From positions 8,774,741 through 8,838,740 of the forward strand of contig OZ037768.1 in the NCBI GenBank assembly GCA_964035545.1: DNA of 64,000 nt, read 5' to 3'. A program made the position numbers and the translations under genes. The notes below the pieces were generated by a model. It saw only the letters and a list, made by a program, of their open reading frames with translations, made no database searches and was not told where the DNA came from. The stretch is from Bugula neritina. Lineage: Eukaryota; Animalia; Bryozoa. Of this stretch, positions 12,303 through 60,342 are shown one piece after another (position 1 is the first letter of the stretch; each line of letters opens with the position of its first letter).

Positions 12303-12475
12303 TGTGAGCTTGTGCGTGTGTGTGTGCGTGTGTGTGTGCGTGTGTGTGTGCGTGTGTGTGTGCGTGTGTGCGCGCGTGTGTGTGTGTGAGTGTGTGTGCG
12401 TGCGTGTGTGTGCATGTGTGTGTGTGTGCATGTACGTGTGTGTGTGTGCGTGTGTGCGTGTGTGTGTGTGTGTGT
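12303..12475. repeat. (GT)n/(GTGC) imperfect microsatellite
   Basis: Visible dinucleotide run. It explains the spurious CVCV/HTHT ORFs. Confidence 0.97.
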
Positions 12476-14112: not shown

Positions 14113-14345
<233 letters not shown>

Positions 14346-16486: not shown

Positions 16487-16611
<125 letters not shown>

Positions 16612-16860: not shown

Positions 16861-16918
16861 AAGACCAATTCCCTTACAGTACTTTTTATAAATAAACATA
16901 GATGATTCTTTTATACCC

Positions 16919-26200: not shown

Positions 26201-26239
26201 TGTGCTTATTTCTAAAAGTTTTAAAGATTGAAAAGCAAC

Positions 26240-26294
26240 TTGTGTGTGTGTGCGTGTGTGTGTGTGTGTGTGTGCGTGTGCGCGCGTGTGTGTG
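26240..26294. repeat. (GT)n/(GC) microsatellite
   Basis: Visible directly in the sequence. Confidence 0.95.
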
Positions 26295-28489: not shown

Positions 28490-28800
28490 TTCGCAAAACT
28501 AGCTAGTCCAGCCAGTGTGATCTTTAACCCTTTGTCTGAGATAAGCGGCGGTTTTATGATCGAAGAAACCACGGTTGGCGTTGCTCTCGATTTACGCCTG
28601 CTATATCGAGTTACGTATTAGAAACTCAGGATGAAAACAATATTGTTCAGTTCCTGCAAAAATGGTGGCGCTAGTTAAGCTCACCAGAGGCGCTTTACAA
28701 AAAGCGCCACTGGTGACAAAATTGAAATAACATTAGCACATGATGAAGTTTCGTATTGAAACCGAAAGGGTGGTTATAGAATTTTTAGACACGCAATCAT
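28490..28800 (+). promoter_or_regulatory. probable CTCF promoter / non-coding first exon region
   Basis: Local CpG enrichment in an otherwise CpG-poor background, ~1.5 kb upstream of the CTCF ATG. Contains a 16-bp inverted repeat at 28681-28716. Confidence 0.5.
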
Positions 28801-30290
28801 AAAAATGGTTTATGTTTAATTATTAAAATCAATATAATGACTAAGTCTAATGAGAATCATAATGATAATGATATTGATAATGATTTATAATGATATTCAT
28901 ATTGAATCATTACACTTTACAGTTTTAGTTTACAATTTCAGTTTACACTTGCACTTCCACCTACTCTTAGTCTTACTCTTAGTCGTACAGTTATTCTTAC
29001 TGATAGTGATACTGATAATGGTATTTATTATTTATTATCACAATTGTCTAGTTACTAGTTAGTGTAACTATACTCATACTGATGCTGTTAGTGTTACTAT
29101 TGCTATTAGACTTAGTACTCACTTAGTCTTACACTAACTCTAAGTGATAAGTCTAACACTTACCTATACTCATACTGATACTGTTAGTGTTACAGTCACA
29201 GTGACAGTGATTGTAATTGTCATCGTGATTAATATTTATTGTTATTATTACTATTACTATTAGTATTAGTAGTAGCCTTAGGCTCAAGCTGAGGCTTAGC
29301 TTCAAATGCTCATCATTCTATATAATATATCAAATTCAATAACAATGTGAATATTGCTATTGAATTTGATTAAAATTGAATTTAATTAATATTATAGATA
29401 TTAAATTCAATAATATTTTATTAAAGATACTATTAATAATAATATTACCATAAGTCTTAGACCCAATATTATTATTACGGATACTTATAATAAAACTAAT
29501 ACTAATAGTCATACTATTATGAGCATTACTCTATAACTATTAGTATAAGTGTTATGTATACACTAGTTAGACTAAAAGTTATGCTTTGTTTTACAGTACA
29601 AGACACAAATGTGCATAACTTATAGTTTTGTAGTTATACTTATAACACTGAGCAATTAGCAAACCCGGGCCAATGTCGAAATCAATCATCAGATGATTGT
29701 TATCAGGAGAAATAGGTCACACACAGTATTTATGTCAATCAAATAGGCTACTCTATTTTGGTCAAAACAATTTATTGTGAAGTACTGCAATAAGGGTTTG
29801 GCAGTTCATTTAACTAAGAATTGCTATACATGCTGTTACTTCCATTATTAATCACAGTTTTAAATTTTTCCAAAATGCATTTACTTTTGAAGAGAATTTT
29901 GATTGTTGTTGTATAGATCTTATTCCGACCACCTATCTGTATTACTAAAAATTTTGAGATGTACTCTACTTAATGTAAATTTGCATTATAAAAATAGATT
30001 TCAAGACATGATAAAAATACTTTTCTAATGAATATTGTGGGGGAGTATGAATGTCACCATAATAATTAATGGTTTTAACTTTTTAAGTAGTTTTGCTTAT
30101 GTTGTAAAATGTATTTTCTTGATGTTAAGTTTTTAATGATGCAAGATATTTTGGGTTATCAAAAGTTACTGGCAACGCTCTCCATTTTTCACAATTCTCA
30201 AAGGGTTATGAGTAGATATAATTATTGTTAATTCTTACTGATTACCAAATTTGTGTTATTCTATTATATATATGTAATATGCTATTAGAT

Positions 30291-33200
30291 ATGGAGATTA
30301 TGAATGAAACAAAGTTAATAGATGACCAAGTAAATGTGGCTGAAAATACTGTCATTGATGATTTGGAGAATGAGAAGTTGCAGGTTCTAAATACGAATGC
30401 AAGCACAACTACTCTGAACATGCAAAATTTCATTGGCACCGCAGGATATCCTGAAAACAGAGAAGAAATACATGGAGGACATGAGCCGGCGTTTGAATGC
30501 ACATGTAAGTACTTGTATTTGGAAAGTACTTGCATCATGGATCACGATCATTAATCAATAATGAAATTTTGCATTTAGAAAATGGTTTACCAAATTATTT
30601 ACATTACTTCAAATAAGTTTCAGTCTAGATTGAATAGAATAGGTCTGGGTTCTGTTGAATAGTGTTTAGATTTGTATATGTGTAATATTTTATGTAGTTC
30701 TGAATGTCACAATTTGTTACAGCAATTGCAGTTGATGATGAGACACACACTACACAAATCAATGCCATGCTACAACAAGATGGACAGCTTTTACAAGTTG
30801 ATGGAATGTGTGAAGATGGTGATGTTTACCTGGCAACTGCCAATCGACACCCTTTGACATACATTACAGGTATGACAAGGTGATATTGAAGAAATAATGT
30901 CTAGTATATCGTCATCACTTTAAGTACATTATATGCATGATAGTACCTTTGATGTAATTTCAATTTTTTTAAAAATCATTAGTTGGATAATTTTATTCTT
31001 TTAGTGTGGTCTTGAAAATTCTACTTTTTGTCTATGCCTACATATTGTTGCTCAAATGTTGAATAAATCTATTTGTGGCCCTTAGAACATACCTTGTGTT
31101 GAATAGCTGTTATGATGTTAATATGCCCACAATTTAACTAACCGTTGTGCTTTAGTTACACAATCTCAAGATCTGGAAGATGTTACTACTGTTCCCCTCA
31201 CATCCCTCTTGGCAACTAGCCCACAGAAGCCACATCAGCTGGTGTTACCAGCTGGGCTTGCTGACACACTGCTAGGTAAATTATTTTGAGTATTTATTTT
31301 TAGTTTTATTTTAATAAGTCCCCCTCTTTCAAATAGAATTAATGTAGTTACATGCTGAGAGTGTAGAGCCTTTAAATTTTGGAATATGTGAATTAATTCC
31401 ACACTGTTTATACTGTCACTGATTTAAACTAAGAGTCTTTAGTAAGAGTCAAACTGTAATGTAATCTCTAATACAACACTGCCCTATCGAATTCAAATGC
31501 TTTTAGCTTTCTACACCAAATGCTATCTATAAGCCAAGCGCAGCTGACTTGTTACAAATTTCTATATATTGAACAGACGCCAACCGTAAAAATAAAACTT
31601 ATAATCATTGCTTTAAATCACGGCAATGACTAATAATAGCTGAAAGGAAAACAACATAAGCTGATTCAGTTCAAAATGAATAATCACATTTAGGTACTAC
31701 TTGCCTTAAGTTTATTTTATTAAATATATAAATTAGAACAAAGAGCAGATGAGTCACATGATCAGTGTAGCCAAAGGAAACTAGAATCAAGTACTGTGCC
31801 TGCGTCAGTTCCTTCTACAAGTGCTATCAAGACTCAGGTAATTCCCACCTCGTCTATGAAGCTGAATTCTCCCGACAGCCAAAATTATCACACCGTTACA
31901 GTTACATTAGTCAATGATAACAAGAAAACACCCACTAATGTGAGTATTCGGCTAAAATATCTTCATGCGACGTAAATATTTTGTCAATGTATTATAACAT
32001 TTATTAACATAGTTCATTCATTTATGTTCACTTGATTTTACAGTAATCATTATACAATAATTTACATCTGGAAAGGTCCTGAAAAGAAATGAAGATCGAC
32101 ATAGAAGCGGCACTAGCTAGATAGTCCATCATATAGTTTAGATGAACTAAACCAGCCTTAGCTACTAATTTTTTGCAAGTGAACATGCAGACCATGGAAA
32201 ATCCTATTTACAAGATTTATTTTGTTCTTTTAGACCAACTACATCTTGCTACTCTCTACTAATGTAGACGGCAGCCCAACAACAACCGGTGCAAATGTTC
32301 TTAGTATAACTGAACAAAAAACCTCTCAAACCACATCTACACCATATTCTGTAGCTCAGAAGGTAACAATCATTACTTTATAACCATAAAGTTATAATAA
32401 CATCATTTCTGCTAAATTACTGTTGTCATTTTTGACTATATGTATTTGTTGATGATTTTCATTCAAGGATTTTTTGTAGCCCGAGGACACGGAGAAAGGC
32501 ATATGTAGTTTGTGCAATTATAAGACTACGCACCGCCACTTGTTACATAAGCATATAAAGACCCACTCTGAAGACCGACCCCACAAATGTCAAGTCTGTG
32601 GTAGTGCATTCAAGACGATGGCTAGTCTGAACAATCATATCAACACTCACTCAGGTATGGGTTATTTACATTATAAAATCTAGCTTCTCGCTGTGTGTAC
32701 TAGATGTGTGTATAATAGAGTTTACTCACTCTGATCTCAGGTAGTCTTAGAGTACTCGCTGCTTGCACTGATAACTGAGGGGCGTCCATTACATATTTGA
32801 AAATAATTTAGGAGTGTCTTTCTGGTAATGTACTATGTTGTCGGCTGCACAATGTGTTATAATATAAATTTTGCTAATTTTGGTTGTGGCTTTTGAGGAT
32901 ATCCGAACACCGGGCATTTTTCTGTATCACTATCAAACACTTTAGTTAATTTATCTGACATGATGGCTTGAGCACCGCAGAATTTATACAGTAAGCTATA
33001 TGCCATAAATTATAAAGAAAATACACATTTCCTATAGATATATGTTATATAAGTATAGGTATGAAAATATGTTGTATAAGATAATGATAGTATGAAAATA
33101 CTTAAACAGTGCCTTTTTAAATTTTTTTGGTCATAATTCAATGTAAAATGTGTTTTTGAAATGCATATCAGTTCTGGGACAATGATCAACTAGAAATTGA

Positions 33201-36200
33201 TCATTTTCAATGCTATATCACCTGTGATTATGTTGTTGTTGGCTAATCTTGGTGCTGAGCCAGGGGGGGGGGAGACAGCTTCATATTAGTATAATACAGT
33301 AATTGGTTAGGGTGTAATAAAATTGAGAAAAACTGGAAAGAGTTGCAAGCATAAGTTTAGTTGTCATTGTTGGTGGGATTTAAACTGCTTCATAACATAA
33401 CCCAGCACTAGCACATATACCACTATGTAGGGTAAGAGGGATAAACCTCAAGCTTATTTGTTGTGTATATTCCTCTCACCTAACCTTTGAAAGCGTTTTG
33501 TGTGAGAAATAAATTGTATGATTTGTCTGATAAAGGGAGAAGACCTCACAAGTGCAAGTGCTGTGATTCCGCATTCACTACATCTGGGGAGTTGATTCGT
33601 CACGTTAGATACAAACACACGTTCGAGAAGCCACACAAATGTCCACATTGTGACTATGCTTCAGTGGAACTGAGTAAAATGAAAAGACACATTCGAACAC
33701 ATACCGGTGCGTGCAAAAAGGAGTTCAACTATCTGAAAAATGATTTTCACTTTAAAGCAGATTTATTAATATGATGGTGCAAATTGAACTATGATCACAT
33801 TGTTCTTAATATCAGGTGAAAAGCCATACCAGTGTTCGCAGTGTGACTATGCCAGCCCTGATTCCTATAAACTAAAGCGGCACATAAGAACTCACACAGG
33901 GGAGAAACCCTACGCTTGTGACATTTGTCCATTGAAGTTTACACAAAGTAACAGCTTAAAGGTTATAATACAACCTATTTTTTTTTGTAAAAATAAATCA
34001 AATATATTTAAAGAGCGTTATTTTGAGTTTACCTTTATGTTATGCTGGATGCACCAATTCAAGGAATATTAAAACATGCTTCTTTGCGAGTTGCTACTTG
34101 CTGTGAAATTATTCTCTACATGTTTAGGCTCACAAGAGAATTCATATGGGTAGTAAACCAGTATTTGCGTGCCAGCTCTGCCCAGCCACATGTGGACGTA
34201 AAACCGATCTGCGGATACATATGCTGAAACTGCATAGCCCGGAGAAAGCACCCTTAGTGTGTAGAAAATGTCAAATGGAATTACCAAATAGATATGAGTA
34301 TAAGCTGCATGTTAGAAGTCACGACGGAGAGAGAATTTACAGATGCAGTAAGACTGATGAATTCAACTCACTTTCACTAGACTGAAGATTTTATGCAGCT
34401 ATGGTGGCAATAACTGTATAGCTGGTTTGTCATAGCCTATCGCTTTATGGTAAACTGATTTTCCATTTTTACATTGTATCACAGGTTTTATTTATACTTT
34501 AGCACTTTGTGCATTTGCCACTCTTGTGGACCGGAAGCTGGGAGAACATTTGCTGTCACAGCATGCCCAGTACAGGCCATATAAGGTAGGTACAGCTTGC
34601 TCATGCGTTTTATTAACAGTTTGCTAGTCTAAAACTATTGTTATTTCCTGTTTAATTTACACAAAAGTTGTAGCATTTTTTATGCATTTAAAAATTTCAA
34701 GATTTAGGAATTTAGTAGTTTACAAAATTGGCTTCTTGATGTGAAAGGTTAAAATTGTGGAATAATACATTTCCAGTATTATTTATATGTTGATAATGTA
34801 TTCATTAACCAATTTTGCTGTGTTATTTTATAAAGACATGAACCTTATATTTATAATGCACAAAAGTTGAAATTGATTTAAGAAATTCTTAAGCTTTCAG
34901 AATTATTTTGACCACATAATGTTCTCACAAGAGTTTGGACTGAAATACTTCGAGTGTTGTGTGTGTAAGTTGCTATTAGGATATGAGTGTTATTCATATG
35001 ATGGTATCAATTGTTATTATGCTGCATTTTCTGGTCTTATACAGTGTACAGAGAGCAATTGCGATGGAGCTTTCCGATTTAAATCTCTATTGCGTCGTCA
35101 CAAGATGTTCTTCCATCGACTAGAAGAATTTTACCCACAGGAGAAAAATTTTGAATGCACATGTGGAAAAAAATTTGCATTGCAATGTATGCTATTAGTC
35201 TTACTTCAAATTAACGAAACCTATAAACAATAAGCTGTTTATTTAAATACATTTTGATTATACTGTTATTCAAACTAATACTAGCGTTATTTCAATTATT
35301 TTAGCAAACCAGTTAAAGCATCAAGAACTGCATGCGGGTAACACTGTCCTATCATCACTCGTTAACATTTTGAAAGATATAGAAGACATCGATGATATTG
35401 GTGAAGATGTCAATGAAGAAATTTCAGAAGAGATCAATTCTATGAACTCATTTGATTTACCAATATCAGTTTTATCGTCTTCTGCGTCTTCTTCTTCAAA
35501 GCGGTTTGTCGACATTCTTTCTGTGCTTTTCTTATTCTAATTTATAACTGTGCCGTGTACTAGCTCGACCCCTGAGTGGTCCTGTAAACAAATTTCTAAC
35601 TATGAGTCAGCCCTTGTAAAAGAGCCAAGCCTGTTATTGTTTAGTAAATGTGTTATACACCCATATATTTAGGACTCTGATTTTCTGGGAGGGGGGGGGG
35701 GAAGAAGAGTAACTATGCACCTGACAAAACTGAATTTATTCCAAAAAGTTAGCTATTTCATGTAACTAATAATAACTTTAATTAAGTTTTTGTAAATAAG
35801 CGACTATTCTCAAAATATTTTGGAGTTGTCTTATTTTAGAGACAAAACACTTGATAAATTTGCTAAATTAACAGTCATCAATGAATAAGTCTTCGTAAAA
35901 TATATTTTACTGTTATTTAAAATTTGCTAAATTATTTTCTGAATTATTATATCTTTTCCTGTGACAAATTGTTAGCATCAGCAAAGCGGCAATAGCTGTA
36001 ACTGAGCTGTGAAAGCAAATGCTGAAACCAAAAGTTTATAATTCTTATAGTTGTGCATAACTTGCTTCTACTGTTGGGTAAATATAAAGTATGGGCAACT
36101 CCCGCACACACTAACCCCAACGTAGACATTCCACTTCAACATACTCTTACTCTAACGAAAACCTTGTTTTAAACTGTAGAACTTCATCTAAGCTAAATTG

Positions 36201-39200
36201 ATTTGTTTATGGGTTATTTTATAATTATGAATCGCAGGTAATTCATTATATGTATAAAAATAAAGGATATTTCTAGTTTCTACAGATATACACTGGTTGG
36301 TTGTATACCATAGTATATTTTTGTTTGATACATTAAAGGTATGCGGATGAGGAAGACACAATGACACAGAGACTTGATGGTTTGCCAGATGGTGGTAACC
36401 TGGTAATGCGGAGGATAGTCCAGCAAGTCAAGGGCCATAGAGTGGTGGTAATGGAAGTGGGTCCCTCTGATAGGTCTAGTCTAAGTGAAGATGACAATAC
36501 CAATGAGCTGAATAAAAAGTCCGCAATGGAAGAATCTACATTGAATAGGTTTGCTGCTGTATTAAGAAATTGTCAGCTATTTCATTTTGTTCAAGATGAA
36601 AAAATTGTTCGCTTGTGTATTTAGATAACTGTATATTGTTAATTAGAAGGTCTATGTGTTAGCATGTATTCTCCATGTTTATTATTTATTCTTAGGAATA
36701 TTCTTGGAGAATATTCCTAAGAATAAGAATATATTAATGTTCTTATATATAAGAATATTCTTCTTATTATATTAAATACCATTTGTTTGTAGAATGCCAG
36801 AAAGCGAATCCTTTGAGCCTGATACATCTATGTCCGAGGATGCTGCTGTGCAAATACTCTACAATCTGTCCTCAGACGGTCATTTGTCTGGCAGCAGTCC
36901 GCACCAACACCACTCAGAGCAGCAAGAGTCTGGTACAGTTACACGTTCATGTCTTATGGGGAGAAGTATATAGCTGTTACCTTTATTATGTTGTAATTTT
37001 ATGGGGGTGGGGGGTATAAGTGTGCATCTTGGCTTTTCACTTACTGTGTTTAAATCTTTCCTATATTGTAATTTTCTATAATCATTCATGTGTAGTTTTT
37101 CGTATAAAAAGTTACCTACTGATCTTGTTTACTATTTAAGCTCTTTTATAACAAGTTTATTCAGCTGCCATTTAAACTCTCTGCCTTTTATGTTTAATTG
37201 TTTTGGTTGTGTCAGCTGCATGTCTATTTACTTGGTTTGGTATTGACAGTGGCTGTCGGCAGCATATTTACTAGGTAATCTTACTTTATATATATTATAT
37301 TTATTGTGTTATTGTTGACATAATAATACTATAATAATAATAATGTGTATATATATATTATATTATATTTATTGTTAACAGATATGGTGACCTCCCTTAC
37401 GTCAGGTCGAGTGGTAACACTAGAAATGGATGCTCTACCGGATGTTTTGTGCGGGGCTGTTGGAGAGGTGTGTATTGGTTGGAAGTAGTTCTGGAATATT
37501 TTAGCTTACGATGAAAATGATTGTGGATTAAAGCACTTATACCTGCGCAACGGCTGACTAAATTTCAAATTTCTATTCAACTGCCATTACAGTGATAGTA
37601 ATACTGTCTCTAACCCTATGTACTTTGTATATGATGAATACATTGGTGCATAGTGTTATATTTACTGTTAGTGTAGTAATAAAGGGCTTTTGAAAAAAAA
37701 ATTTTATATTTTGTTTGAGGTCAAAAAAAATGCAGAGTTGAATACTATTTCTGTTTGCAAGCAGTTGATCAAAAAGGCTTAGTCTAACAACATCATACAA
37801 AATCAAATTTATTGTTTTAGACAATTTTCAATTTAATTAAATTTTATATGTTTTAAAACAGTATTAACTAGTTTTCATGTTGTTTCCCTATAATATATTA
37901 GATTGGGTATGTCTGTGTAATCTATAGAGAACACATGATTTTGCAGTTAGCCTTATGGGATATGTATCGGAATTTGCATTAAACTACTTTTTCCGATGTT
38001 TCCTTTTTTCTTCTATATGGAATAATGTTTTGTTATGCGTCACATTTGAGTAGTGACCAAGTGGTTCTGAGTCTATTTTGTGACCGGTACCGCCGGTAGA
38101 TAAACTGGCTGGTTTGCTCTTGCACTTTACTCTGTATCTTGTATTGTCTTTGGATAGCTTCATCTCAAGATATTTGTCGCTGTAAGGCGATACTTTTTTT
38201 TGTTTTGAGTTGGTGAATATTAGCGAGACTGGTGCATTATGTTGAGGTGTTATAGAGCTCTGGGAATTTTCTGTAGCTTTTATTGCAATAGGGGACATGT
38301 TTGAATGAGTTGCACTCGGTGAGTATGGACTAGGCTGTGCAGTTCTGGGCAGGGCTCTGTCAGATTGCCTTTCTGCATGCATGACTTTACGATGTCTCAC
38401 TCGGATAGATGGTGGTATATTTGATTGCGGTGTTATTGAGCTTTGTGACAAGTGTGTATTTCTTGGATACAGTTGAGAGACATTAGATGCGGCCAAAGAA
38501 GCCGTACTTGGTGTATTTGCACTAGCAGGGACTACTGGTTGGGTTTTGTCAGATTGAATGTCTTTATATTGAGAGATATTTTTGTGTTTTGATCGTTTTA
38601 CTCGAAGAGGAATAGAGCGAGGGACATTTGAGTGGGGCGTTACTGAGCTCTGTGACGGGCATAAACTATTCATCTGCAGCTGAGAAATGTTTGAGTTAAT
38701 TAGTGAGCCTGCACTTGGTGTGAATGGGCTTAGAATTATCTCTCTGCTCTGCTTCTGTATATTCGATAGCTCAGATTCTTTAGATTTATTGAGTGATTTT
38801 CTCGATTTCTCTGTAACTTCTGGGCTGGTAATCATCGTAGGCATAGTTTCCATTTGTAGTGATTTTCTTGAATTGAATTCCTTTGTTGACCGATTGCCAA
38901 CAAGATTTTGAACTGAGAGAGTTGCTTCTCGATTCAGATTTTGGCCTGATTTTGTCTTTTTTGTAGCTGGTAAGTCACTCTCATTAGTTGGGTGACGCGA
39001 TTGGTATGGCTGAATGTTAGTGTTCAGTTCATGACTGGTTTTAACTTCGCAAATTGGCGAGTAGAGAAAAACCACGTATGATCGTTCTATTCTCCACAAC
39101 CTTTTGGTTATAGCTGTCTTCCAGCTGCGTGTGATAACATTTGCTCTTCCTATTCCCACCGCTCTAGCATTCTTCCATATAATGTTGAAAAATTTATCTA

Positions 39201-42200
39201 AAGTAGAGAAATGCAACATTGCATGATTTGAACAATCAAACAAGTGTAGTTGCTTCAAGCTCTATTTTATGTATTATTTATTTGGTTTACATAACATCGC
39301 AGCTTACCATAGTTGCTATCATACTTTTCTTTATATGTGTAAGAAAGACCGCTATCGTAGGCCAGTTGTACTGTAGAATCACCTAATTAAACAACCACAG
39401 GAGAACAATCTATTGTAAAGTTTACATAGTTTGAATTTTATAAAGTGTGTTTAATAATTATAAGCTGGCAAATTGCTTACATTTGACTAATTTACAAATT
39501 GCATTCAAGTTCTGCTCAAATTTTTGTATGGTGTTTAAATGTATTTTACCTGAAATAATGTTTGTACCAGGTTTACCCTCTTGGTATAATAAACTCTCTG
39601 CACATATTGTTCCGTCCAATCGTAGCCTGCTGTTTTCTTCACTACTCGGCTTGTCATTTGTTTTATGCTTTCGAGCGTATTTTATTGCTATTTTGTTGGC
39701 CAACTCACACATCTCTCTGTTCAAAGATAAGGGCGGCACATGGTGACCCTTCAATGACAGTTATTGTGCTTGCTCAAACACTCACCTGCTTTGATTCGGT
39801 TCTAACTTTTTATCTAAGTTTGATTAACAAAAATGAGGTTTTAAAAAAGTTCTCCTTACATTTATAATATTGCTAAAAACTGTTGGTACTCTTTATAATT
39901 TATTTCTACTAAACTAATTATATAAAAATGTTTGTTGAGATTGTTTTAATTCATCTCATTGCATTGATGAAAACATGATATATTAAATATGACATATTGT
40001 TATAGTTTTCAGATTTAGGGTTGATGTGCCACCAAGAGAGTCTATTTAACACTAGAGAAACTTCACCAGTTAAGTCGAGTAGATATCGTTATATTTAATA
40101 CAAGAATACATAATAAAAATCCAATGTACAACAGTAATGATACGCACGTCTATTTAGTTTACAGCACTATCCTCAACTGAGCTAGTAGCGCGAAGCGGCT
40201 ACTATTACTTATCAAACAGCTTAGCTAATTGGCTAATACATTGTTCCGGGTCAATACGCAACCTTGCGTATTGTGTTGCTGGTAGCTCCACGAGCCACCA
40301 CACTGCCCCCTCCAGCAGAAAGCCCACTTTCTGATAAAATAAGATTCACATAAAAAAACGTATACTTCGTTGTGGGGGGTAAGAGAACAGTATAAAAGTA
40401 TATACAAAAAAAAAGAACAACAACTGGTAAAAATATACAGGTATATATAACGTGCACTAAGTAATAAGCAAGAGAAGATCCTATCTACATGTAGAGTACG
40501 TGCCACCATTACGGTAGGGAATGCCACAGAGAGGTAGGGGAATGAGTAGTAGGGAGTAGTAGGTAGACTCGAGTTAACTGCGGGCCGCACGCTTCATGCG
40601 TTTAATAGACTCCTGTAAGTATTTGAGTTCACTGGATGCTGCCTGTACCCGTGGGGCCAGCCTGTACACTTCTTGCTCCAAGTCATGCGCCCTAGCTTCT
40701 ACCTCACGTAGGTTACGGGCCCAGGGGGACGAGCGAGAGGAAGTTGGCTGCCTGTGTCTTTTCCGCTCTGAGGATGGAAGGGGAGGAGGGAGTGTATACG
40801 CATTTGTGTCTACTCTCTGTAGTACGACACGAGGAAAGGTATGCGGCATGCGTATAGGACTGTGAGGTGGAGAGTTAGTAGACTGTGTAGGTTTATCTGC
40901 GGCTTTAGAGATGATGGGTCGCGGGGAAGGGAAGCCTTGCTCCAGGCGAGATAGCCGAGCTGAGTCAGTGATGAGTGGTTTGATGGCGTTGAGAAAGGCA
41001 GGATAGGATGATTCGTCTACTTCATAGACATGCCCTTGATAACACTGCATAGTACGTTGGTGCCGCAACAGGTAATCACGATTGTAGCTATATTCTCCGC
41101 AAGGGCAGAAAGTGGTGATGTAGTGTTGCGGCAAGTGTACTTTTAGTCTGCGGTGGGTCGTGAATCGCTGCTGGCAGAGGTTGCATTCACGATTACCCTC
41201 ACCTCCTTGATGGGTCCTGATCTCTCTCTCTGTGGCAGGGGTAATCCAGTTGGAGGTTGCTTCCAACTGGGGTGGCAGTTTCCTGGTGGTAGAAGTTGTT
41301 GGGGCCGGCTCTGAGTCCCACGCCATCTCTAGAGAAGGCATGCCCGGAGAGACGGGCGCGAGTGTGCCTACAAAAGTAGAATTAGTGTTAGATCGCGGTG
41401 GATCTTTACAACCTAATTCTAGTGACTGTCGACCGTTGCTAGCCTGAGAGTCACTGCTTTTGGAATGCACTCGAGGAACTGATGAATCATGTGTGGACTG
41501 ACCAAGAACAGTGTCTAGCTCCAGGTCTAACAGACCATCGGCCATTACAGTGTCTTCATCGTCATTCACATGAAACGTGGTTCCCAGTAATTCTGATTCA
41601 ATCTGCTGAATTAGTTCAGAATCTACTGGCATCGAGCCCGTTTCCATGAATAGGAATACAAGACTTATACTGGCTTACCTGGGAACTCGGTATTAATGTC
41701 CATACTCAACGTTCTTGGTAAGGTTGGAGCTGGTTGTGAGATACGTCTGCCTTTGGCGATGTCAGCATAAGAAAAGGCTGAGCATCGTTTCTGAGGCACG
41801 AGGTCGGAACTATTTGCTTTACGCGCATTAATTCCTCCCACTATTCCGCCCTCGCAAAAGTTGATATTTGCGTGGGGTTCACAACTCCAACATTTTATCG
41901 TACGGTTTTCCCCTAGACTTTCATGTGCGCCGCTTCTAATGCAGTCACATATGAAGTCTTTCAAATACGGTGGGGGCTTCCTCGTACGCTGTCCCCTTTC
42001 TAGGGGGGGTGACACGCTTGCCGGTTCGTTAGTAGGGGCCTCTAATGGCGTCTCTACTTCACCGTTAGTGGTCACCTCTTCTTGTTCTCCGGATGGAGCC
42101 CCTCCCTCCGTGGGGGTTTGCACTTCCGGAACCGGCTCGGTTTCTGGAAGTGATGGAATTAGACTTGGCGGTGGCGGACACACTTCTGTTGGCAAAAGCT

Positions 42201-45200
42201 GCCGCTCCTCTCTCACCAAGTTTTCCTCCCGCGGTATGACCACTTCGTATTCAGGTCCATGCCGCCGTCGCCCGCGCGTCGTTGTCTGCCTCCTGGGCTC
42301 TAACAACGGGGGGGCTTCTCCCACTCCGTCAGGGCTAGCCCAATACGGTTTCAAGCGAGACTCATTCTGGATAGACACCTGTCCTGAGCGCTCAATCTTG
42401 TACGTATGATTGGGCATAGCCTCGACGACCACGTAGGGGCCTACGAACTTAGGCTTCAGCTTATCAGCCTGTCCGCGGCGCCTACGGTAATTGACCATCC
42501 ACACCTTATCTCCTCTTTGATAGAGGGGTGGTTCATCGGAATCTTCGTGCCGCACCTTCCACTGCTGTTGACGCAGTATCTCGTGTGCGGCCTTCATCCG
42601 TTCCACTAGTTCACTGGCATACTCATGGACTGAGTTATCTTGCTCCGGAACGTGATAGGTGAGATGGTCAGGGACACGAGTCTCTCTCCCGAGCATCAAG
42701 AGGTTTGGGGTCTCACCAGTACTGGTGTGTGGGGTGCTACGGTATGCACGCATGACTTGCGGCAACACCATATCCCATTCCTCTTGACCTCGTCCAAGGA
42801 GGAGACTCCGGAGCGCATCACCTAGCATCCGGTTGTTGCGCTCCACCACCCCGTTACCTTGAGGGTGGTAGGGGGTGGTCCTGCTCTGATTTACTCCCCA
42901 GAGGTGGCAAAGGTCGCTCATCAGTTGAGACTGGAATTGAGCGCCTTGATCAGAGTGTATCTGTTCGGGAAGCCCAAAATAACAGAATACATGTTGGTCT
43001 AGTGCCCTGGCCACTGTTGGGGCTGATGCATCTGGGATAGCCAGAGCATCCGCCCACCTAGTAAAGTGGTCGGTTAGTACTAGGATCCAATTATTGCCTC
43101 TGGGGGTCAGGGGCATGGGTCCGACCAGGTCTACAGCGACCACTTGCCAGGGCCTACCAGCATATAGCCTCCGCCGTCCTGCTTCACCAGGGGGGCGGCT
43201 ATGCTTACTGGCCTGGCAGATCTCACACTGTTTGACTCTGAGCCGGACGTCACGCTCCATCTGCGGCCAATACCACCGGAGTCGTAATTTGGATATCACT
43301 CGCTTGACCCCTGCGTGGGCCTGCTTGTGAGTATCCCAAATCAACTCACGGCGGATGGCTGTGGGGCAGACTACCCTCTTCCTTTCCGGGTGTCTGCCGC
43401 TGGCAGCTAGAGAGATGGTTAGCAACCCATCCTGCCCGATCCGCAGCGAGTCCCAACGCTGACAGTATAGCCGGAACTCGGCGCATCCCTGTCGTATGCG
43501 TTCCTCGCTGGGTCGTCGCCCTTCCCTTTTGGCCCGGTAGATGTCTGCCACGACTCCCGGCAGCTCTTCTTGGAGCTTCTTCAGCTCTCGAACATTACCG
43601 GCCAGTACAGGGTTGGCGCGGAGGTTTTGTACATCCTCCGGGGACTCGTCAACTCTTTGCCTGAGTTGACCTTGATCCCAGTCAAACGGTGCTCCGTGAT
43701 GAGCCAGCGTCTCCAACTCGCATCGTGGGGGACCTCCATCCCTCCTCTCGATGTTGAGACACTGTTTGCAACCTCCGTCAGGTCGGCGACTCAACCCATC
43801 CGCATTGCTGTGTCTCTTGCCCGGTCGGTGTTCGATCCGGTACGAGAATTCAGCTAGGATTTCGAGCCACCGGGCGACCTGACTGGAGGGCTCTGCTCTC
43901 CTGCACAACCAGATCAGCGAGGCATGATCCGTACGCAGCCGGAACTTCCTGCCATATAGGTATGGTCTGAAGTGCTTCACTGACTTGATTACTGCCAGCA
44001 GCTCCTTGCGGGTAGTGCAGTAATTTCGTTCAGCGGGAGAGAGAGACTTGCTGTAGTAGGCTACTACTACTTCTCGGCCTTCCTGCACTTGCGACAGCAC
44101 AGCGCCAACATTCTGGTCACTGGCGTCTGTGTCTAGGATGTACTCCAGAGTGGGGTCTGGGTAGGCCAAGATGGGCGCCGTTAGGAGGCAGCCCTTGAGG
44201 CGGTCGAACGCTTCTTGTTCGACTGGAGTCCACTGCCACGTCACTCCCTTTGCGGTAAGCCGGTTTAACGGCTGGGCTATGCCCGCAAAGTCTGGTATGT
44301 ATTGCCTGTAATACCCTACCAGCCCCAAGAAAGCCCGGAGTCCGGTCAAGTCTTGGGGGGGTGACCCAGTCTTCTACTGCCCGTACCTTTTCGGGATCCG
44401 TTGCCACGCCGTTTCGACCGACAACGTGCCCCAGGTACTTGACCTCCGGCTGCAATAGAGCGCACTTGGAAGGTTTGAGCTTAAGACCGGCACCTCGGAG
44501 TCTCTCGAAAACCTCCTGTAGACGACTGACATGTGTCTCGAAGTCTGGAGAGATTACGATGACGTCATCGAGGTAGACCAGCAGTGTCTTCCAATGGAGT
44601 CCGCTAAGGACTTGTTCCATCAGCCTCTGGAAGGTGGCTGGGGCGGAGGTTAACCCGAAGGGCAGCACCTTCCACTTCCACAAACCGTCCCGTGTGATAA
44701 ACGCCGCTTTCTCCTGGGCGTCGGGACTCAGAGGAACCTGCCAATAGCCGCTTAGCAAGTCTAACGTACTGAAGTACTTGCTGCCGGCTAGGGCGTCCAA
44801 TGACTCGTCAATACGAGGTAGAGGGTAGGCGTCCTGTATGGTTACGCTATTGAGTTTGCGATAGTCCACACAGAACCGCCAACTGCCGTCTTTCTTCCGG
44901 ACCAGTACGACTGGCGAGCTCCACGCACTATGGGCGGGCTCTATCAGTCCCCGGTCCAGAAGATCCCGTACTTGTCGGCTAAGCTCCTTCTCTTTCTCCG
45001 GCCCCAGCCTGCGCGTGGGCTGCCGGACAGGGACTGTCCCTGCAGTCAGCGGTATTTCGTGTCTGACAATTCCAGTCAGTCCCACGTCATTCTCCCCGCT
45101 GCTGAACACATCACCGTAGTCGCGTAGTAACTTGGCCATAGCTTGGCGTTCTCTGTTACTCGCGCAGCCGCCACTGGCTGTTTCGTATAACTCCCGGAGA

Positions 45201-48200
45201 TGTGTCGGGACTGCCCCTCGTCCCTGAATAGGGTGTCGAGAGGGTGCCTCCGTCGCGTCACCCAGCGACGGGCCCACGTCCTCTTCCTGGACGGAATGGA
45301 ACCGGCCCAGCATTGACCCAGCTGGGAGCTCAATGGGCTCGGTAAAGGGGTTGACGCACTGCACTAAGACCTCCCCTCGCTCAGTTAGTCGGTTTAAACT
45401 ACTGGCGAGTTGGATCTTTTCGTGCGCGCTTTCAACGACCCCGAGCCTGGCTATCCGGTTGCTGTTCACTCGGCAGTGGATAGTAGCTCTGGAGCGTCCG
45501 GGTACGGTGCAGTTCCGAACTACCTGAACACCGCCCACCAGAGGACGCCCAAACTTATCCACACAGGCGAGTTCTCGCCCGCCCATCAGCACCACCGACT
45601 TACTAAAATCTATTCGGCACTGGTGTTGCTTCAAGAAGGGCATGCCGAGGATAGCATCTTCCTCCAGTTGACCTATGATAAAGGTCTCCTGTACAGCCTG
45701 ATCTCGGACACGCCCAGGGAGCTCGATAATACCATAAAAGGGGATACATGACCCGTCTGCCAGGGTGCCATGTTCTCCAGTATACGGTCGTACTCTATCC
45801 CTGTCCCGGCGGGGCAGTGCCTCAAAGACTCTACGGCTGAGAAGGTTGGTAGTACAACCGGAGTCGAGCAGGAAAGTGACGGCGTTGCCGGCCACCTTTC
45901 CGGGTAGGAAATAGCTCTCTCCATGTGGTTGTACTTTCACCCCCCCCGCATGTGCTGTCCTGGTTTGACAGGACGGCGGGGGTTCCACCCGTGGTTTACG
46001 GGGCTTCCGGCGGCGAGGTTGGTGCCGGCGGGGTTTGGGCCTCTCCACTGGGCCTTCTGGCTCCATTTCAGTGGCGGGCTCCTCCTCCCGAGGTAACCGG
46101 TGAAACCGGTTAGCGAGTGGCAGGGAAAAGGTACTGGGCCGTTGTGCGGGCCTACTAGTCCTGCGTGGTACCTGCCACTCGGGTAGAATGTTCCGCCGTG
46201 TCCGTACGGACAGACGACGGCGTGTTCCACCATACTCCTTTAGTTGCGGCCCGCGGGGAGGGAGAGTGTCCGCGGGCCGTGACAGTTTAACGCCCCCTGG
46301 TATTGGGGTCGTCCTTTCTGTCCCTGGTCCTGATCAGCGCTACTCCAGCCTTGCCCCACAGGTGTTGGGGGCATCCGCAAGGCCTGCCCGGGGCCAGCAC
46401 CGGCCAGAATGGTCACCAATTGTCCCAGCATCTCTACCATACGGTCCACTTCGGCTTCCAGCGGGAGGGCTTCGGAACCTGTCGTAGCCCGAGCAGCGCT
46501 GACTCCAACTACTGGTGGGTTCCGTTGTGCTCGATGCATTTGGGTGGCCAACAGGTAAGCTTCTCCAGCCTTCAGGGCATCCTCTATTCTGGTTATCCCT
46601 TTAGCTCGTAGGTGATGGTCTAGGCCCAGGTCGTTTAGGGACTGGACAAAGGCGTCATAGGTGTAACGCTCTTGGTGTTGTGCTGGCAGATCGCTATATG
46701 CAATCTGCGCCAGCTTCTTCACTGTCGCGGCATGTTCTTGCAGCGAGGTCCGCGGGGTGCGGCACAATCTCTCCAGCTTGGTCCTGGCGTCTATGACGGA
46801 GGTGCCAAAACGGGCCCGCAGCGCAGCCAGTATGCCGTCTACGTCCGTTCCCACTCCGTACGGCTTGGCTTGCTCCGTCACCGCCCTCCGCAATTTGATA
46901 AGGGCCACTCTATGCGGCCATTGAGCAACTTCCATTACCTCTCTAAATTCTTGTATAAATTGTTCGACATCTTCCGACCCAGTAAAGGTGGGAGCTTTCA
47001 AGCAATGTCTATAAGCTTCTTCTCCTTCACGATTCACAGGATTAACAGCATTTCTACGCTCACCTTCTACTGGGGGTGGTTGCATTCTAGCATTTTCAGT
47101 CTCCATCTTTGATATACACTATCCCACTGCTGCCACCACTGTTATAGTTTTCAGATTTAGGGTTGATGTGCCACCAAGAGAGTCTATTTAACACTAGAGA
47201 AACTTCACCAGTTAAGTCGAGTAGATATCGTTATATTTAATACAAGAATACATAATAAAAATCCAATGTACAACAGTAATGATACGCACGTCTATTTAGT
47301 TTACAGCACTATCCTCAACTGAGCTAGTAGCGCGAAGCGGCTACTATTACTTATCAAACAGCTTAGCTAATTGGCTAATACATTGTTCCGGGTCAATACG
47401 CAACCTTGCGTATTGTGTTGCTGGTAGCTCCACGAGCCACCACAATATAGTGTTTTTTTAATATGTAACTTAGTGCTCAGGTTAGACCTATCAAAATGCA
47501 ATGCTTTATTGTTAGAACTAGGCTCTGTCTTTAAGAATCATTAGTATCTTAGTGCTGATTGAGAGTATTGATAATGAGGCTCAATAATATATTTCTGCAC
47601 TTCTTGCATGAGTATTTCAAATATTTGTGGCTTGTTTTTTAACGTTGTGGCATTAGAGCCTATCTACTGAAGCTTCTAGTAAGCAAGTTAAGCCAATAAG
47701 TATGTTACAAGATAGATTGTTAGTGATTCAGGGTGTAGAAAGAGCTCGAGTCTAAGAAATATGTAAGAATTGTACTCTACCATAATTCTACTACCTCTCG
47801 CAAATTATTGTGCTTCTTAAATGCCTTGTCTATGAATTCACTCTTATTGGTATTCGGCTCCCATCTATAAAGCTCAGTGCAGCCAAAGCAAGTCTGAACA
47901 ACTGAACAGCAGGTCAGCTCAAATGTGTGAAACTCATCTGTAGGGACAAAAGTCTTGTTGACTTATCTAATTAATTCACTTATCAACGATAAAAATAAAT
48001 TCTGTTCAGGTGTAATATCAATTTTTATGAACTGTTGAAATATAGTATATTGGTGTAACAAGCCTCATATGTGAAGTTTGTGTGATCAACTCACATATGA
48101 AAATACAATAGTATTACAGTTCCTATAGTAAATAAACTGAATCTACCAGTATAGGTTTATTGAGTTCTCAATTAGGTTCTATGACAGCTAATTATTTTTA

Positions 48201-50225: not shown

Positions 50226-52676
50226 TCAGTTATCATTTTCAAAATATTTTTGTTCATCTTTTATTTATTGGCAAACTTTCTGTTTTAGCTAAAAATTCAC
50301 TATTTTCTATTGGAATAAACATATTGAAGCTTCATTTTTTTTAAAAACTTTATAATTATTGTTTGTTATTAGGAAAGCTCTGGTCTAATTTTTTACATAA
50401 ATACAGCTTATCGTGTAATATGATTGATCTCATGGTTGTAATATTACTTAAAAAGCATTATTTATTGTTTTTTGTTATCTTGTATATTTGCATGATATGT
50501 TTTTTTAATAAATATACATGTGGATAATTTTCAGGTTTCACTATTAATAATTTCAGTCATTAAATTTCCCGTCGCAACCATAGAGTTATCTCCCTCATCA
50601 TGCTGGAAAAATATTATCTTGTCACAACTATAATATTATTTTCCCATTATACTAAAAATGTTACAGCCAGATGCTCAAATCTTTCACCTCTAGACTCTGC
50701 CACTAGAACTTCACAAATCACACAGCCCATATCTAAAAGCTCAATTATGTAGAATAATTGCAAAAGTTGCATGTTTCTATTTCATCATGTTTTTTATTTA
50801 ACCATTCAATAAACAAATGTAAATTATAAAGTAAGACATAACATGCAACTACAACAAATCAATATTCAAATTTGCAGTTGAGATAAATGCTAACAGTCTA
50901 TATATAGTCACACTGCTCTTTAACAGGTTATCTGAATCAGCTAGTAATAAGAACTTTTTTGGCGAGATGATTGTAGGCTTCCCATTATGTGATTAATATT
51001 AGATAATGCTGATTCACAGCTATAAGTAAACAGCAAATGTTGTTAGCAAATAAACTCTGATCAGTTATAATATATATAATCTACTTACCCTATTGAACAA
51101 GGTTTTGTTATGCATTAATTGTTTTATTAAGACATTTGCTACTGTTATTCCCTGCGCTTGATGCTACCATTCTCTATCAATGGTGATTTTCATACCGTTG
51201 CTTTAAAATTACTTGAACTGGTCTTAGAATTCAACTTAATTTTATATCATGAGCATAAAGTTGTAGGCTGGCAATCTTTCATCATTTGCGTCTGCTTCAC
51301 TCAAAAATTGTTGCCTAGCTTATGTAAGGCTAATTTTGATCTTAAATAGGTATATAATAATATAACAATTAAATTAACTTCAGTAATGTAGAATTTTAGC
51401 TGAAAGTAATGCATAAATCTGGAATTGCATGTGTTGCGTCAGAAATGTATTTTTTCGAAAATGCAATTTACTATAAAAAAAATATACACACTGTTATAGC
51501 GCATAATATTATCTGCCGGAGTTATCTTCCTTAAAAAATAAGAACGAGTACTTTTCCTCTTTTCTTTATTGCTACAAAAATCTAGCCGTTCCAACATCTT
51601 TATTTGTCAGCGTTTCCTATTTATTAGAGAGAATCTACTACTAGTACTAGTCACGCGATTAAGAGCACGAACTTAAAGGGATAAAAATTATGTTAGAGTC
51701 AAATCTAATAACTACAGTGTAGGAAAACTTAAAATTGACACAAATTTAATTTTTAGCTAAACTAATTATTAACAAATATTACTTGCTAACTTAATGATTA
51801 CATGTTCATGTTGGTATTACCAGGTCCAGAGTAAGACTGGGAGTGTGAGATTGAGACCGAGGGCGAGAGTGAGTGACACTCTCAGATTGTTAGTGTCACA
51901 CTCACTGTAACTGAGTTCTTATTACTATTAGTATTGCTTTATTGGTCTTTTGTTTAAATATTGTTTCTTTTTGTTTTCACATTGCCTATCGGCTATCAGT
52001 ATCACTGACAACCACAATGACTATGAGTAATGACAATCTGAATCAATGGAACTATTGCTATTACCATTAGTATTACTATAACTATTAGTATTAGTATTAG
52101 TAGTATTAGTCACTCACTATTACTATCAGTATTACTATTACTAAATATATTGCTATTAGATTAATAGTTATAGTAATACTATTAGTATTATTATTACTAT
52201 TTACCAATAGTAATAGTAATAACGGTTACTGTGACTATCAGTATCACTCTGACCATTCGTAAAATTATAAGTATTAAATTTTGATTTACTATCACATCAC
52301 TAGTACTACGACAGAGGTGTTTTTTGTAATTTTAAAGCATGGAATAATCATTAAATTTCATTATACATCCAATTGTTGCTATCTCCCCAGTACATAACTG
52401 AAATGCTTATTGTGTTAATACATTAATGAATTAATGTACATGTAAGGATTAAATTCTGTAGCCGCAGCTGTGATAGGTTCATTGTTATATAATACTATTA
52501 CCAACAAATCTAGTTGAATGAAATGAGTTAAATTTATATATTGAATTGCAGTTGATAATACAAATTAGTGGTACAGATACCATTATTGAATATTAATCTA
52601 TCAAAGCATTAAAGTATGCCATTTTATTTGGAATGAGTCGGTTTTAATTATCCTTACAGTTGATGTGGAATTCACA

Positions 52677-55600
52677 ATGAGAACGATTTCATTTGTGGAA
52701 AGACTTGAATTAGAATTCTATGATGAAGTATGTGACAATCAACAGCAACAGGCGCTTCCTTGGAATTTATGTCAACAAGCGATAGCTTTGGGTGATGCAG
52801 ACAATGATGATGTAAGCTTGACTATAAGTTTAGTGTTGTCAACTAGTGACTTAATCATACATGTGGATCATTACTAAAAGTTTGCTAATGAAAATACTCA
52901 TGGGTAACTGGTATTTGTTTGTCGAAAACTTTGCCGCTTGAAAAACTTATGTTTTAGAACGTTTGTTGCTTTTTTTAGAGCAATGAGCTTGCAGTAGGCA
53001 CTGTCTCAGGTCGTCTCTTGATCTATAAAGGTCATGGCCACACAGCTTGGAGAACCAGTCATGAAAAACTAGGGATGGTGGGTATAATGACGGATTTACA
53101 TGTCTCATATGATTGGCTTCTTTTAATAAAGGACTGGAGAGTTATGATAGAAAATTTTCACTCACATTAATAAGCTTAATACTGATGTTAAGGTTTTAGC
53201 GAGGAAAATGATTTAATGATACCTTCTTTAAATGGTTTGTTTATTCTTATGTTGTCAAGGTTATTATGAGCTTTGATCTAACTCACAAATTATTTTGAAA
53301 TATATTTTAGAGTTTTTACTTTACTTCTGCTCTCAATTTAAATAAACTTGGTTTGTGACTTTTCCAACAGATAACTTGTGTTACTATTGGAGATGTATGC
53401 AACAAGAAACAAAACAATGTGTTTGTTCTAAGTGCTGATGGCTGGTGTAACATATTCCATATTCCTCCAAGCTCTCCGGTTAGTTGTTATGAATGAAAAT
53501 TGTTTTAGTTCATTTTACAATAATAAATTTTACTGCATATATTATTTCAACTGTTTTACATTTTTTGCAACTTAGATTATTTAAAACTAACTGTAATATA
53601 TTGCATTTATGTTGAAAGAGAACATGAACTGGAGCTTTTTAGATTAAGTTTTCATAAACATTGCTGCATTAAGATGACAATGCTATATAGTTAGTCATTC
53701 TTTAAGAATGCATAATAGTTTAAAATTAAATTATATTAATACAGATCACATGTATATTTGGAGGAAGCCACTAGCCAAAAAGGAGTTATAGTTTTAATTG
53801 AAAAATAAATCTTTTCTCCAATTAAATTACACAAGATATTTATGACTTTATTTGCTTTCAGTGACATAAACTAGCTCTTTGACCATCAAGTGTCACAGAT
53901 AGCTTTATTTGCCTTTACAGATAAATAGTGAAATATCTAGTTTTCCATTGATTTAATAAATTTAGTAAAATGTTTGTGTTTTCAGGAGGAAGTACAAGCA
54001 CCAGTTTTAAGCAATGAGATCTATTCTATGCACAGACAACATTTATCTCCAAACAGCAAATTACTAAAACTGGTGGACATTGGTATGTGGGAAAATATAT
54101 CATGTCAACTGTAAAATGTGCTTCATTCTATTTACAATAAAATAATGAGCAGTTGATAATTTACTGATTAGTTTTAGTAGTTTTGAATATTGTACCATAT
54201 TTTGTCAATTGTTACCTGATAATTGGTTTACATCCCCAATTTTTTGACCATTTATGTGGACAAAATGCCAGGCTAAGGTTTGGTGAAACTTACGCATGTA
54301 AGTAATTAAAGCTTTTATGTAATCTAGTTTTTTAGTATTGTAAAGGCTACTTTATGGAAAATTTTAGTATTTTGTTGCTCTGTATGATTTAAATAGTATT
54401 ACTGGGACATTTAATTTACCTATTAATAAACTTACCACATAGTGGTAGGTCTATTAATCATGTACCCTTTATATAAGTTTGTAAGTCAGAGTTATTTTTT
54501 GTAGAAAGCAACGGTGGTATAATTATAGCTGTTGGGTTTTCTGACCGTGTAGTGAGGACATACCGATGGTACCAGTATCTAGATGGAAAGGGAGAACTGG
54601 CTATCCTCAATAAATGGGCTTTAACAGCTCAGGTAGACTTTGCAGACTGATCTTAGACTTATCGAGCAAGGTTTAGTTCAACAAGACTGAATAATTTTAG
54701 TTTGCATAATTTTCTCACTTCCGGATATTTGATTTTGCAGATAGGCTCACTATCTCTAAAACCCACAGCTGACAACGCAAGCTTTGAGCTAATTGTGGGT
54801 CAGCCAGGCAGTACATACGTCACGTTATTTCAAAATGGGCAGTGAGTATTAATTTTGATGAAGTTTTTAGTTTACTGTAACACAATGTAGATGAAATTCT
54901 AAATGCTATTAAATTATAACTTTGTCATGATGCAAGTTGTGATGGCACTTATACTGCATTTGCTGAACTCTAAATTGCTATCTGTAGTTATAATTTAAAC
55001 TAATTGAAATAAATTTTGCCACCTATGACCTAGTTCTAAAGGGTAAATCTCAGCATCATGCACTTATTTTGTAAAGGGTGTTCTAGTTTCTTGCTTGCAG
55101 TATTGCATACAATGGTCCTGAATGCTGCAAGACACACAGTGAAACTGTTTCTGCTGAAGTAGTCAGCAATGTGCATACTGGAGATGGGAGGAGCTGTTTT
55201 GCCATGTCAACTCTAGATGGTAATGTATACTCTATTTGTAGTGTGGTGGTGAGATGTTCATTCAAAATACTATCTGTTGAAACTCTGAAATGTATTGATT
55301 CTAAGCGCTTTGTTATAATGCTTTAGGTAATTTGACTTTGTTGTATAGGTAATATCATGCTAATGGATTATAGTGGAGAGATAATATATGAAAATAGTGT
55401 GGATCATCAATTATTTGGATTAACTAAGCTAGATATTACAGTAAGTAATACAAATATATCTACCAGCTAGTGGTTCAGCTAAAGTTGCTAACTTTCCTTA
55501 ATTTGCAAATCACTTGGATGATGGTACGATGATATAACACTAGAATCTTGGAATTTTACACTTTTGAAATAAAAAAGGGCGTTTTGGTAAATGAAATAAA

Positions 55601-60000: not shown

Positions 60001-60342
60001 TGATATTAGTGAGGTTACTGTGACTGTATAAAACAATTACAATTATATTATAGGCACAGAGTTATATGCAATAAAAAAATTTTGCTTATAGAATTTTACC
60101 GACAATTTTTTTTTCTATTCATTAAATTGAGTAAATCAGTTGTTAATATAATACTAAGAAGTCTGGATAAATATTGGCGGTGAAATGAGAAGACAACTGC
60201 AGTTGGCATTCAGAATACGCAGGCTTGCAACCTCTTCATTATAATTAATAATAAAAGTCTTACTATAAGTATATCTATGCCTTACCTCAACGCCATGCAC
60301 AATGAAGATTTTTTCAGCCTGGCTCAGTAAGACTTCGGCCAT
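57013..60342 (-). CDS. EXOSC7: exosome complex component RRP42, multi-exon
   Basis: MAEVLLSQAEKIFIVHGVE|DNVRIDGRSC...ASGSARV, TDILVGVKAELG, SANANPKFEGRGGEELA, CWILYIDVL, DLSDDPFD, DPSVEEEVC, ending GFLH*. Confidence 0.95.
57520..57720 (+). mobile_element. degenerate tRNA-derived SINE-like element in an EXOSC7 intron
   Basis: tRNA-like head with A-box-like GTTAGAGCA and B-box-like GGTTTGAACCCC, followed by AGGAAGAGCATCCAG, which resembles a central motif of metazoan SINEs. Boundaries are approximate and no intact cloverleaf is present. Confidence 0.45.

Follow-up and report, generated by a model that had tools for sequence, protein, structure and literature searches.

Retrotransposons of the long terminal repeat (LTR) kind are thought to depend on host factors for the firing of their promoters, and transactivators encoded by the element itself are a mark of the complex retroviruses. 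One of these, the foamy virus protein Tas, binds both the LTR and an internal promoter. Here we describe a possible counterpart in an animal LTR retrotransposon. The window analyzed, a 64,000-nucleotide (nt) stretch of the genome of the bryozoan Bugula neritina (contig OZ037768.1, positions 8,774,741 to 8,838,740), carries a Ty3/Gypsy element whose third open reading frame (ORF), ORF3, encodes a protein with two zinc fingers and a predicted C-terminal coiled coil. We put at roughly 45% the probability that this product is a nuclear, dimeric, sequence-specific DNA-binding regulator that activates or de-silences the LTR promoter of its own element.

How does ORF3 compare with the accessory genes already described? 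For all papers cited here, the comparison extends to the portions of text available to us. Vesta, Juno, and TelKA, LTR retrotransposons of bdelloid rotifers, carry ORF3s other than env (PMC5408684). Like ORF3 of the window, these are third sense ORFs behind pol that do not encode Env, and their animal hosts of lophotrochozoan type have a plausible counterpart here; unlike ORF3, they encode GDSL esterases, DEDDy exonucleases, or transmembrane or coiled-coil proteins, and the main text of that paper nowhere mentions zinc finger, C2H2, or transactivation. Tat-clade and fungal elements, too, have accessory ORFs (PMC2774666), as does the MDG1 group of Drosophila (PMC11952523). CERV of the Caenorhabditis elegans element Cer1 resembles the proposed ORF3 product in being a nuclear accessory protein of an animal Gypsy element, one whose parts include a zipper, a zinc-binding loop, and a basic signal. 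Compared by description, however, it is spliced, shares exons with gag, and has a C4-type loop and a G-protein-like domain (PMC10309623). Tas resembles ORF3 in lying near the 3' end of a retroelement and in the role proposed here, but it lies behind the env gene of a true retrovirus; the likeness is one of position and proposed role (PMC7828637). DNA transposons, too, encode sequence-specific regulators (PMC5735166, PMC13547354). VANC of the Arabidopsis VANDAL elements is, like the proposed ORF3 product, element encoded and sequence specific and acts on the element's own noncoding motifs; it differs in belonging to a plant DNA transposon with tandem-repeat targets and is likened to ORF3 by function (PMC5735166).

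The literature searched holds no description of a C2H2/coiled-coil ORF3, in keeping with the earlier note on this DNA, which did not recognize ORF3 as a described family; supplements, subscription papers, and the Repbase, GyDB, and Dfam databases lay outside the search and may describe it. Surveys of mollusc and annelid LTR elements do not mention zinc, ORF3, or envelope in their main texts (PMC6238403, PMC8556966), and the available portions of three further papers hold nothing on ORF3 (PMC13269885, PMC6338049, PMC2836005). New here are (i) a 10+2+10 palindrome in the LTR, (ii) in-frame joins of an integrase tail to the ORF3 core in a few relatives, and (iii) bryozoan gene models with the same domain.

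ORF3 and its protein family

The gene and its recognizable parts all lie on the minus strand.

40574..41647, minus strand: ORF3, an intact ORF of 357 amino acids (aa) between pol and the purine tract
41648..41960, minus strand: tail of the pol frame and leader of ORF3, where low-depth contigs of run X8 show single-base indels (41718-41742)
41498..41647, minus strand: ORF3 aa 1-50, acidic and hydrophobic (13 D/E, no K/R), a candidate activation region
40910..41287, minus strand: double zinc-finger core, aa 121-246 (C2H2 plus atypical C2HC), from the structural model and ligand conservation
40751..40765, minus strand: basic patch RKRHR, aa 295-299, a candidate nuclear localization signal, from sequence
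40580..40723, minus strand: C-terminal heptad helix, aa 309-356, a predicted coiled coil, from the heptads and a modeled helix at 308-356

The earlier note had reported an intact 357-aa sense ORF between pol and the purine tract, and this is what we find. ORF3 starts 17 nt past the pol stop in a different frame, a stop-free stretch of its length arose in 0 of 1000 shuffles of the region (median, 103 codons; maximum, 225), and about 270 nt of AT-rich noncoding DNA separates its stop from the purine tract. All of the motifs named in that note are present in the sequence: the acidic N terminus, the C2H2 finger, the CxC...H...C finger, the RKRHR patch, and the heptads. Finger 1 (C155-X2-C158-X12-H171-X3-H175) had been called canonical, which is true of its spacing but not of its Pfam score, 15.6 bits against a cutoff of 25.2, nor of the linker that follows, which is not of the TGEKP type. 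Finger 2 (C181-X-C183-X12-H196-X5-C202) is an atypical C2HC finger. Both the five-residue linker and the C-X-C of the second finger are family-wide features. An RKRR-like patch is present in most close homologs that reach that far, and in ORF3, starting at residue 306, 13 of the 15 a/d positions are hydrophobic.

Could ORF3 be an envelope protein of the errantivirus type? This candidate was rejected. As the earlier note had stated, ORF3 has neither a signal peptide nor a transmembrane segment, because its highest 19-residue Kyte-Doolittle mean is only 0.74, and env families are absent from its Pfam matches at an expect value (E) of <=1.

A word-seeded search recovered 46 close homologs among 1936 candidates, 8 of which span 98 to 100% of ORF3 at 48 to 72% identity. 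When a 24-sequence profile was searched against 1.84 billion representatives, 123 clusters passed a threshold of 1e-10 and 296 one of E<=0.001; the longest of the 150 matches listed has 596 aa. A core alignment of 125 rows includes 121 core-covering proteins as well as ORF3. In these rows, at identities down to 26%, seven zinc ligands are 94 to 100% conserved and the eighth, C202, 89%, and W134, T139, F180, V210, and D211 are kept at 89 to 96%. On the finger helices, the 69 distant rows retain K/R166 (57 rows), R167 (46), R190 (51), and D/E191 (59), the conserved basic residues being the sole pointer to DNA binding when membership in the C2H2 class was examined. Mean identity over 14 close homologs is 62% in the acidic N terminus, 59% in the core, 49% in the coil, and 46% and 33% in the linkers. 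Of the distant homologs, 29 continue for 70 residues or more past the core, near-duplicates among them, and 24 of these passed an ad hoc heptad score of our own (p<=0.05 against shuffles). The start motif of ORF3 is also the beginning of 16 of the 46 close homologs, 9 are at least 340 aa long, and 32 have all eight ligands in the exact spacing; cut or damaged copies are what is expected of a mobile element on short contigs. Judged from these alignments, the ORF3 family is a large, unnamed, conserved accessory gene. The ESM Atlas, whose matches serve as leads only, returned unnamed clusters at 0.91 (whole protein) and 0.95 (core), followed by generic C2H2 clusters. In three proteins (P0056, P0085, and P0151), the double-finger core or the finger pair is present twice.

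Does ORF3 occupy the same place in related copies? Evidence that it lies between integrase and LTR in relatives is indirect. Summed contig depth in run X1, which is not a copy number, is about 23,000-41,000 for ORF3, 38,000-39,000 for gag, and 75-107 for the unique flank, so that ORF3 has a gag-like depth several hundred times that of the flank. No indel reaches 5% within ORF3 or at the pol/ORF3 junction in that run, and a contig of run X8 that spans 41508-41714, covering the end of pol and the start of ORF3, differs at 32 of 207 letters without a gap. Scans of metagenome contigs, viral contigs, and prokaryote genomes found no confirmed related locus.

ORF3 might be expressed from an internal promoter, by splicing, or by reinitiation past the pol stop. 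No clear splice acceptor lies just upstream, where there are two weak candidates. The metatranscriptome run X2 contains a 276-nt ORF3 contig, but its contigs extend over 21 of the element's 30 bins and so do not speak for transcription or for a subgenomic RNA. A special RNA structure in the leader of ORF3, at z=-4.4, was considered and rejected because many 200-nt windows of the element reach z<=-3; a search of Rfam gave no match.

Predicted structure of the protein

The model of full-length ORF3 is confident only at about 121-245 and in the helix at 308-356. Modeled alone from 70 sequences, the core reaches a predicted local distance difference test score (pLDDT) of 95.8 and a predicted template modeling score of 0.87, and it is predicted to form one compact double-finger domain in which the fingers are cradled by extra helices. 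The finger pair superposes on DNA-bound tandem fingers such as those of ZBTB20 and CTCF with a root mean square deviation of 2.5-3 Å over about 50 residues; for the 126-aa core, the best whole-domain Z among 48,161 chains is 3.6. ORF3 is thus like the tandem fingers of ZBTB20, CTCF, and SALL in the consensus of its first finger and in its superposable pair, but it lacks their TGEKP linker and has a C-X-C second finger and additional helices, at a Z of about 3.

What about the C-terminal helix? The top sequence match of the family profile to a solved structure is the zipper of C/EBP-beta (E=0.0017), with which ORF3 has zipper-like heptads in common. In basic leucine zipper (bZIP) proteins, the basic helix is continuous and carries Asn-X7-Arg ahead of the zipper. 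In the basic region of ORF3, residues 301 and 308 are prolines, the Asn of bZIP proteins is missing from its place, and the pLDDT is below 50 at 299-304. Because the prolines break this region, the match is one of coiled-coil likeness and not of bZIP membership, and ORF3 as a bZIP protein was rejected.

Candidate functions of the ORF3 product

How might these parts work together? The coiled-coil tail would pair two copies of the protein, the basic patch would carry them into the nucleus, each zinc core would recognize one half-site of a palindrome, and the acidic N terminus would recruit host coactivators. The best candidate for such a site stands near the start of the LTR.

47394..47415, with a second copy at 40252-40273: perfect palindrome CAATACGCAA-GG-TTGCGTATTG (10+2+10), at LTR positions 30-51

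No perfect inverted repeat in the element exceeds this one in length. A CCAAT motif (LTR position 71) has it on its upstream side, and when the dinucleotides of the LTR were shuffled 1000 times, 3 of the shuffles equaled it. Outside the LTRs, the half-site ACGCAA occurs only at 41873, in the ORF3 leader, with TTGCG at 41857. A second inverted repeat of the LTR, with 7-bp arms and an 8-nt spacer, is found at 47325-47346 (LTR positions 99-120) and in the 3' copy.

The earlier note had proposed a dimeric DNA-binding regulator. That ORF3 is a conserved accessory gene other than env stands, as do a zinc core and predicted coiled coil that recur in distant relatives; nuclear location, dimerization, DNA binding, and activation, and with them the regulatory role, are what we infer from these parts. 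Several observations weigh against that role. (i) The palindrome was noticed post hoc and is a candidate operator only; a palindrome in an LTR can also be bound by host factors or fold into an RNA hairpin. (ii) Atypical fingers within one globular domain could equally bind RNA or protein. The core found no structural match at Z 5 or at a Foldseek E of <=0.001 in the PDB, viral, and wide libraries, a lack that does not show a new fold, and the basic region is broken as described above. (iii) Among the differences listed for the stretch (40 of 121 rows, weighted to the N terminus), 25 single-base ones fall within ORF3; 9 are silent and 16 replacing, a stop among the latter, and they do not depart from the neutral expectation (p=0.32); among the same rows, second codon positions are underused, holding 3 of the 25 (p=0.015). 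(iv) Integrase-tail sequence stands in frame with the core in P0170/P0200/P0201 and P0101/P0202/P0203, which a free transcription factor would not need. (v) CERV, the best studied of the animal precedents and a nuclear accessory protein of an LTR retrotransposon that has been tested, acts in RNA export and is dispensable for transcription (PMC10309623).

Could the module instead steer integration? It would then bind host DNA or chromatin and direct the integrase, either as a fused C-terminal domain or, as here, as a separate partner. A motif scan of 195 proteins found one, P0170, with an integrase-tail motif in frame ahead of the core; its cluster mates P0200 and P0201 have it too. We take this motif to be the end of a Gypsy integrase, and the same pattern occurs in the pol tail of the window. 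By tblastn, two of the 195 proteins match the element outside ORF3, P0101 at the pol tail (E=5e-7) and P0118, which joins the SH3 region of integrase to ORF3 sequence; by eye, P0058, P0111, P0121, P0180, and P0181 also start like the pol tail (P0121 at E=0.027). In a quick tree with weak support, integrase-joined rows are found to either side of the midpoint root (77 rows, from which most close homologs and six near-duplicates were left out; 44 of 73 forks open). Such joins in some relatives therefore keep a targeting role under consideration. We nevertheless judge it unlikely, as matches outside ORF3 are confined to the two proteins and the one protein just named, P0101 and P0118 look like products of internal deletion, 16 of the 46 close homologs start with the ORF3 start motif, and tethering has no need of an acidic N terminus. 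A long Pol-ORF3 fusion was also not found among proteins of 672-2000 and 918-2620 aa, a weak search; most contigs are short.

A post-transcriptional factor of the Rev/CERV kind would multimerize on the unspliced genomic RNA and aid its export or stability, with the palindrome acting as an RNA hairpin. C2H2-type fingers can bind RNA, and an SPSP run stands beside the basic patch in close homologs of ORF3. CERV of the Cer1 element is nuclear and required for export, and it has a cysteine finger, proline-directed phosphorylation, a basic signal, and a stretch that may be a leucine zipper; its splicing from gag and its G-protein-like domain, on the other hand, make for an architecture other than that of ORF3, a single 3' frame (PMC10309623). 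Together with the want of a clear splice acceptor upstream of ORF3, of an Rfam match, and of RNA structure near ORF3 stronger than that elsewhere in the element, this leads us to regard an export role, too, as unlikely.

Might ORF3 be a decoy, that is, a captured relative of a host nuclear protein that pairs or competes with host proteins of the same domain, perhaps repressors of the element? Among 30 proteins looked up, three clusters had an organism name, and all three are bryozoan gene models carrying the core: XP_067940964.1 and XP_067944745.1 of Watersipora subatra and KAF6040922.1 of Bugula neritina. These are annotated as host genes and have the same zinc core as ORF3, at 29-43% identity, against up to 73% for element-type copies; they differ in that two have an extra N-terminal segment and one has two cores. 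The heptad helix ends two of the three. KAF6040922.1 and XP_067944745.1 have the N-terminal segment, absent from ORF3, in common (whole alignment, E=4e-19). Orthologs of a host gene would be expected to look like this, which suggests that such a gene bears the ORF3 core. The segment spans aa 7-51 of P0197 and aa 28-72 of P0159, belongs to no Pfam family, and may be an unnamed host domain joined to the core. The gene models nonetheless fall in three places among unnamed rows of a weak, unrooted tree that does not give the direction of transfer, some may be element genes annotated as host genes, and we know of no repressor function for any of them. We consider a decoy distinctly improbable. With the same domain in Watersipora and Bugula models, capture from the host and domestication by the host are both possible, but the low identity of the bryozoan cores means that ORF3 is not a recent capture. 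The earlier note had named recent capture of a host gene fragment as grounds for giving up its proposal; the recency falls away, whereas host genes with the domain do exist.

That ORF3 is a nonfunctional passenger or a recent host fragment is highly improbable, for although the listed differences do not show purifying selection, only 9 of 46 close homologs reach 340 aa, and 14 are without the full ligand spacing, the ligands and fold residues are kept at distances at which neutral sequence would be unrecognizable, damaged and cut copies are usual for a multicopy element on short contigs, and likeness to the neighboring CTCF-like gene is limited to 31 residues (E=0.024).

Self-regulation through the LTR thus remains our preferred account of ORF3. 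One wider and more tentative speculation is that a deep lineage of marine-invertebrate Gypsy elements encodes a dimeric transcription factor, made from a double zinc-finger domain not yet described, that reads a palindromic LTR operator, a feedback switch like that of Tas in a retrotransposon lacking an envelope, and that its domain has passed between elements and bryozoan genes. If so, the bryozoan host may own activators or antagonists of the same switch. A conserved, transcription-factor-like ORF3 and a candidate operator make self-regulation of a Gypsy element, by transcription or silencing, directly testable. Tests of coevolution could draw on the family's naturally paired finger sequences and LTR sites. 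Its core is a new zinc-binding domain whose structure could be solved, and it presents an instance of a domain exchanged between elements and the genes of bryozoans.

The Ty3/Gypsy element and its surroundings

The element that carries ORF3 is made up as follows.

About 40-47 kb, minus strand: Ty3/Gypsy element, a GC-rich insert in an AT-rich window (about 30% GC)
47140..47444, minus strand: 5' LTR, 305 nt, TG...CA, identical to the 3' LTR over 305 nt
39998..40302, minus strand: 3' LTR, 305 nt
39994..39997 and 47445-47448: target-site duplication ATAT, from sequence
47121..47138, minus strand: primer binding site directly behind the 5' LTR, presumably of the tRNA-Leu type
40303..40313, minus strand: purine tract adjoining the 3' LTR
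46240..47106, minus strand: ORF of 288 aa at the gag position, assigned by position
41665..46333, minus strand: pol (protease, reverse transcriptase, RNase H, integrase), in two frames in this copy, split near 44,350

By its pol order, direct LTRs, primer binding site, purine tract, target-site duplication, and reverse transcriptase nearest to that of Ty3, this is a Ty3/Gypsy element. The pol domains found in Pfam are an aspartyl protease, RVT_1, RNase H, Integrase_H2C2, rve, and an SH3-like domain, in the order protease, reverse transcriptase, RNase H, integrase. The best solved relative of the reverse transcriptase is Ty3 (E=1.6e-54), the next groups compared, retroviral and caulimoviral, reaching 7e-35 or weaker. 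The gag-position ORF has no significant Pfam family and no obvious CCHC knuckle in its sequence. Contigs of runs X1 and X7 join both flanks without the element, an empty site, and the ORF3-bearing insertion is therefore very young.

The gag and pol frames overlap by about 90 nt in a -1 arrangement, and the gag frame there contains GTTAAAC, behind which comes a stem rich in GC (46291-46247, minus strand). This is likely a -1 frameshift signal; the fold of the stem lies within the range of shuffles (z=-0.82).

A multiexon host gene with tandem C2H2 fingers, which looks to us like CTCF, lies at about 33,480-37,470 on the plus strand and ends about 2.5 kb from the insertion; capture of ORF3 from it was considered and rejected on the short likeness given above. 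The CTCF-like gene and the marine runs that contain the sequence fit a host among the marine bilaterians, plausibly a bryozoan. At 37984-39261 on the minus strand, a Ser/Pro/Gln-rich open frame of 425 codons with internal repeats and no Pfam family is probably one long exon of the host. Frames that look like exons of other host genes lie at about 52,600-56,600 (plus strand) and 57,800-60,350 (minus strand); to us they resemble an ITFG2-like protein and an RRP42-like subunit of the exosome. Long micro- and minisatellite tracts, built of GT, AT, and AC repeats, a 9-nt unit, and a purine-rich unit of 8 nt, occupy 12,300-12,480, 14,130-14,345, and 16,480-17,200.

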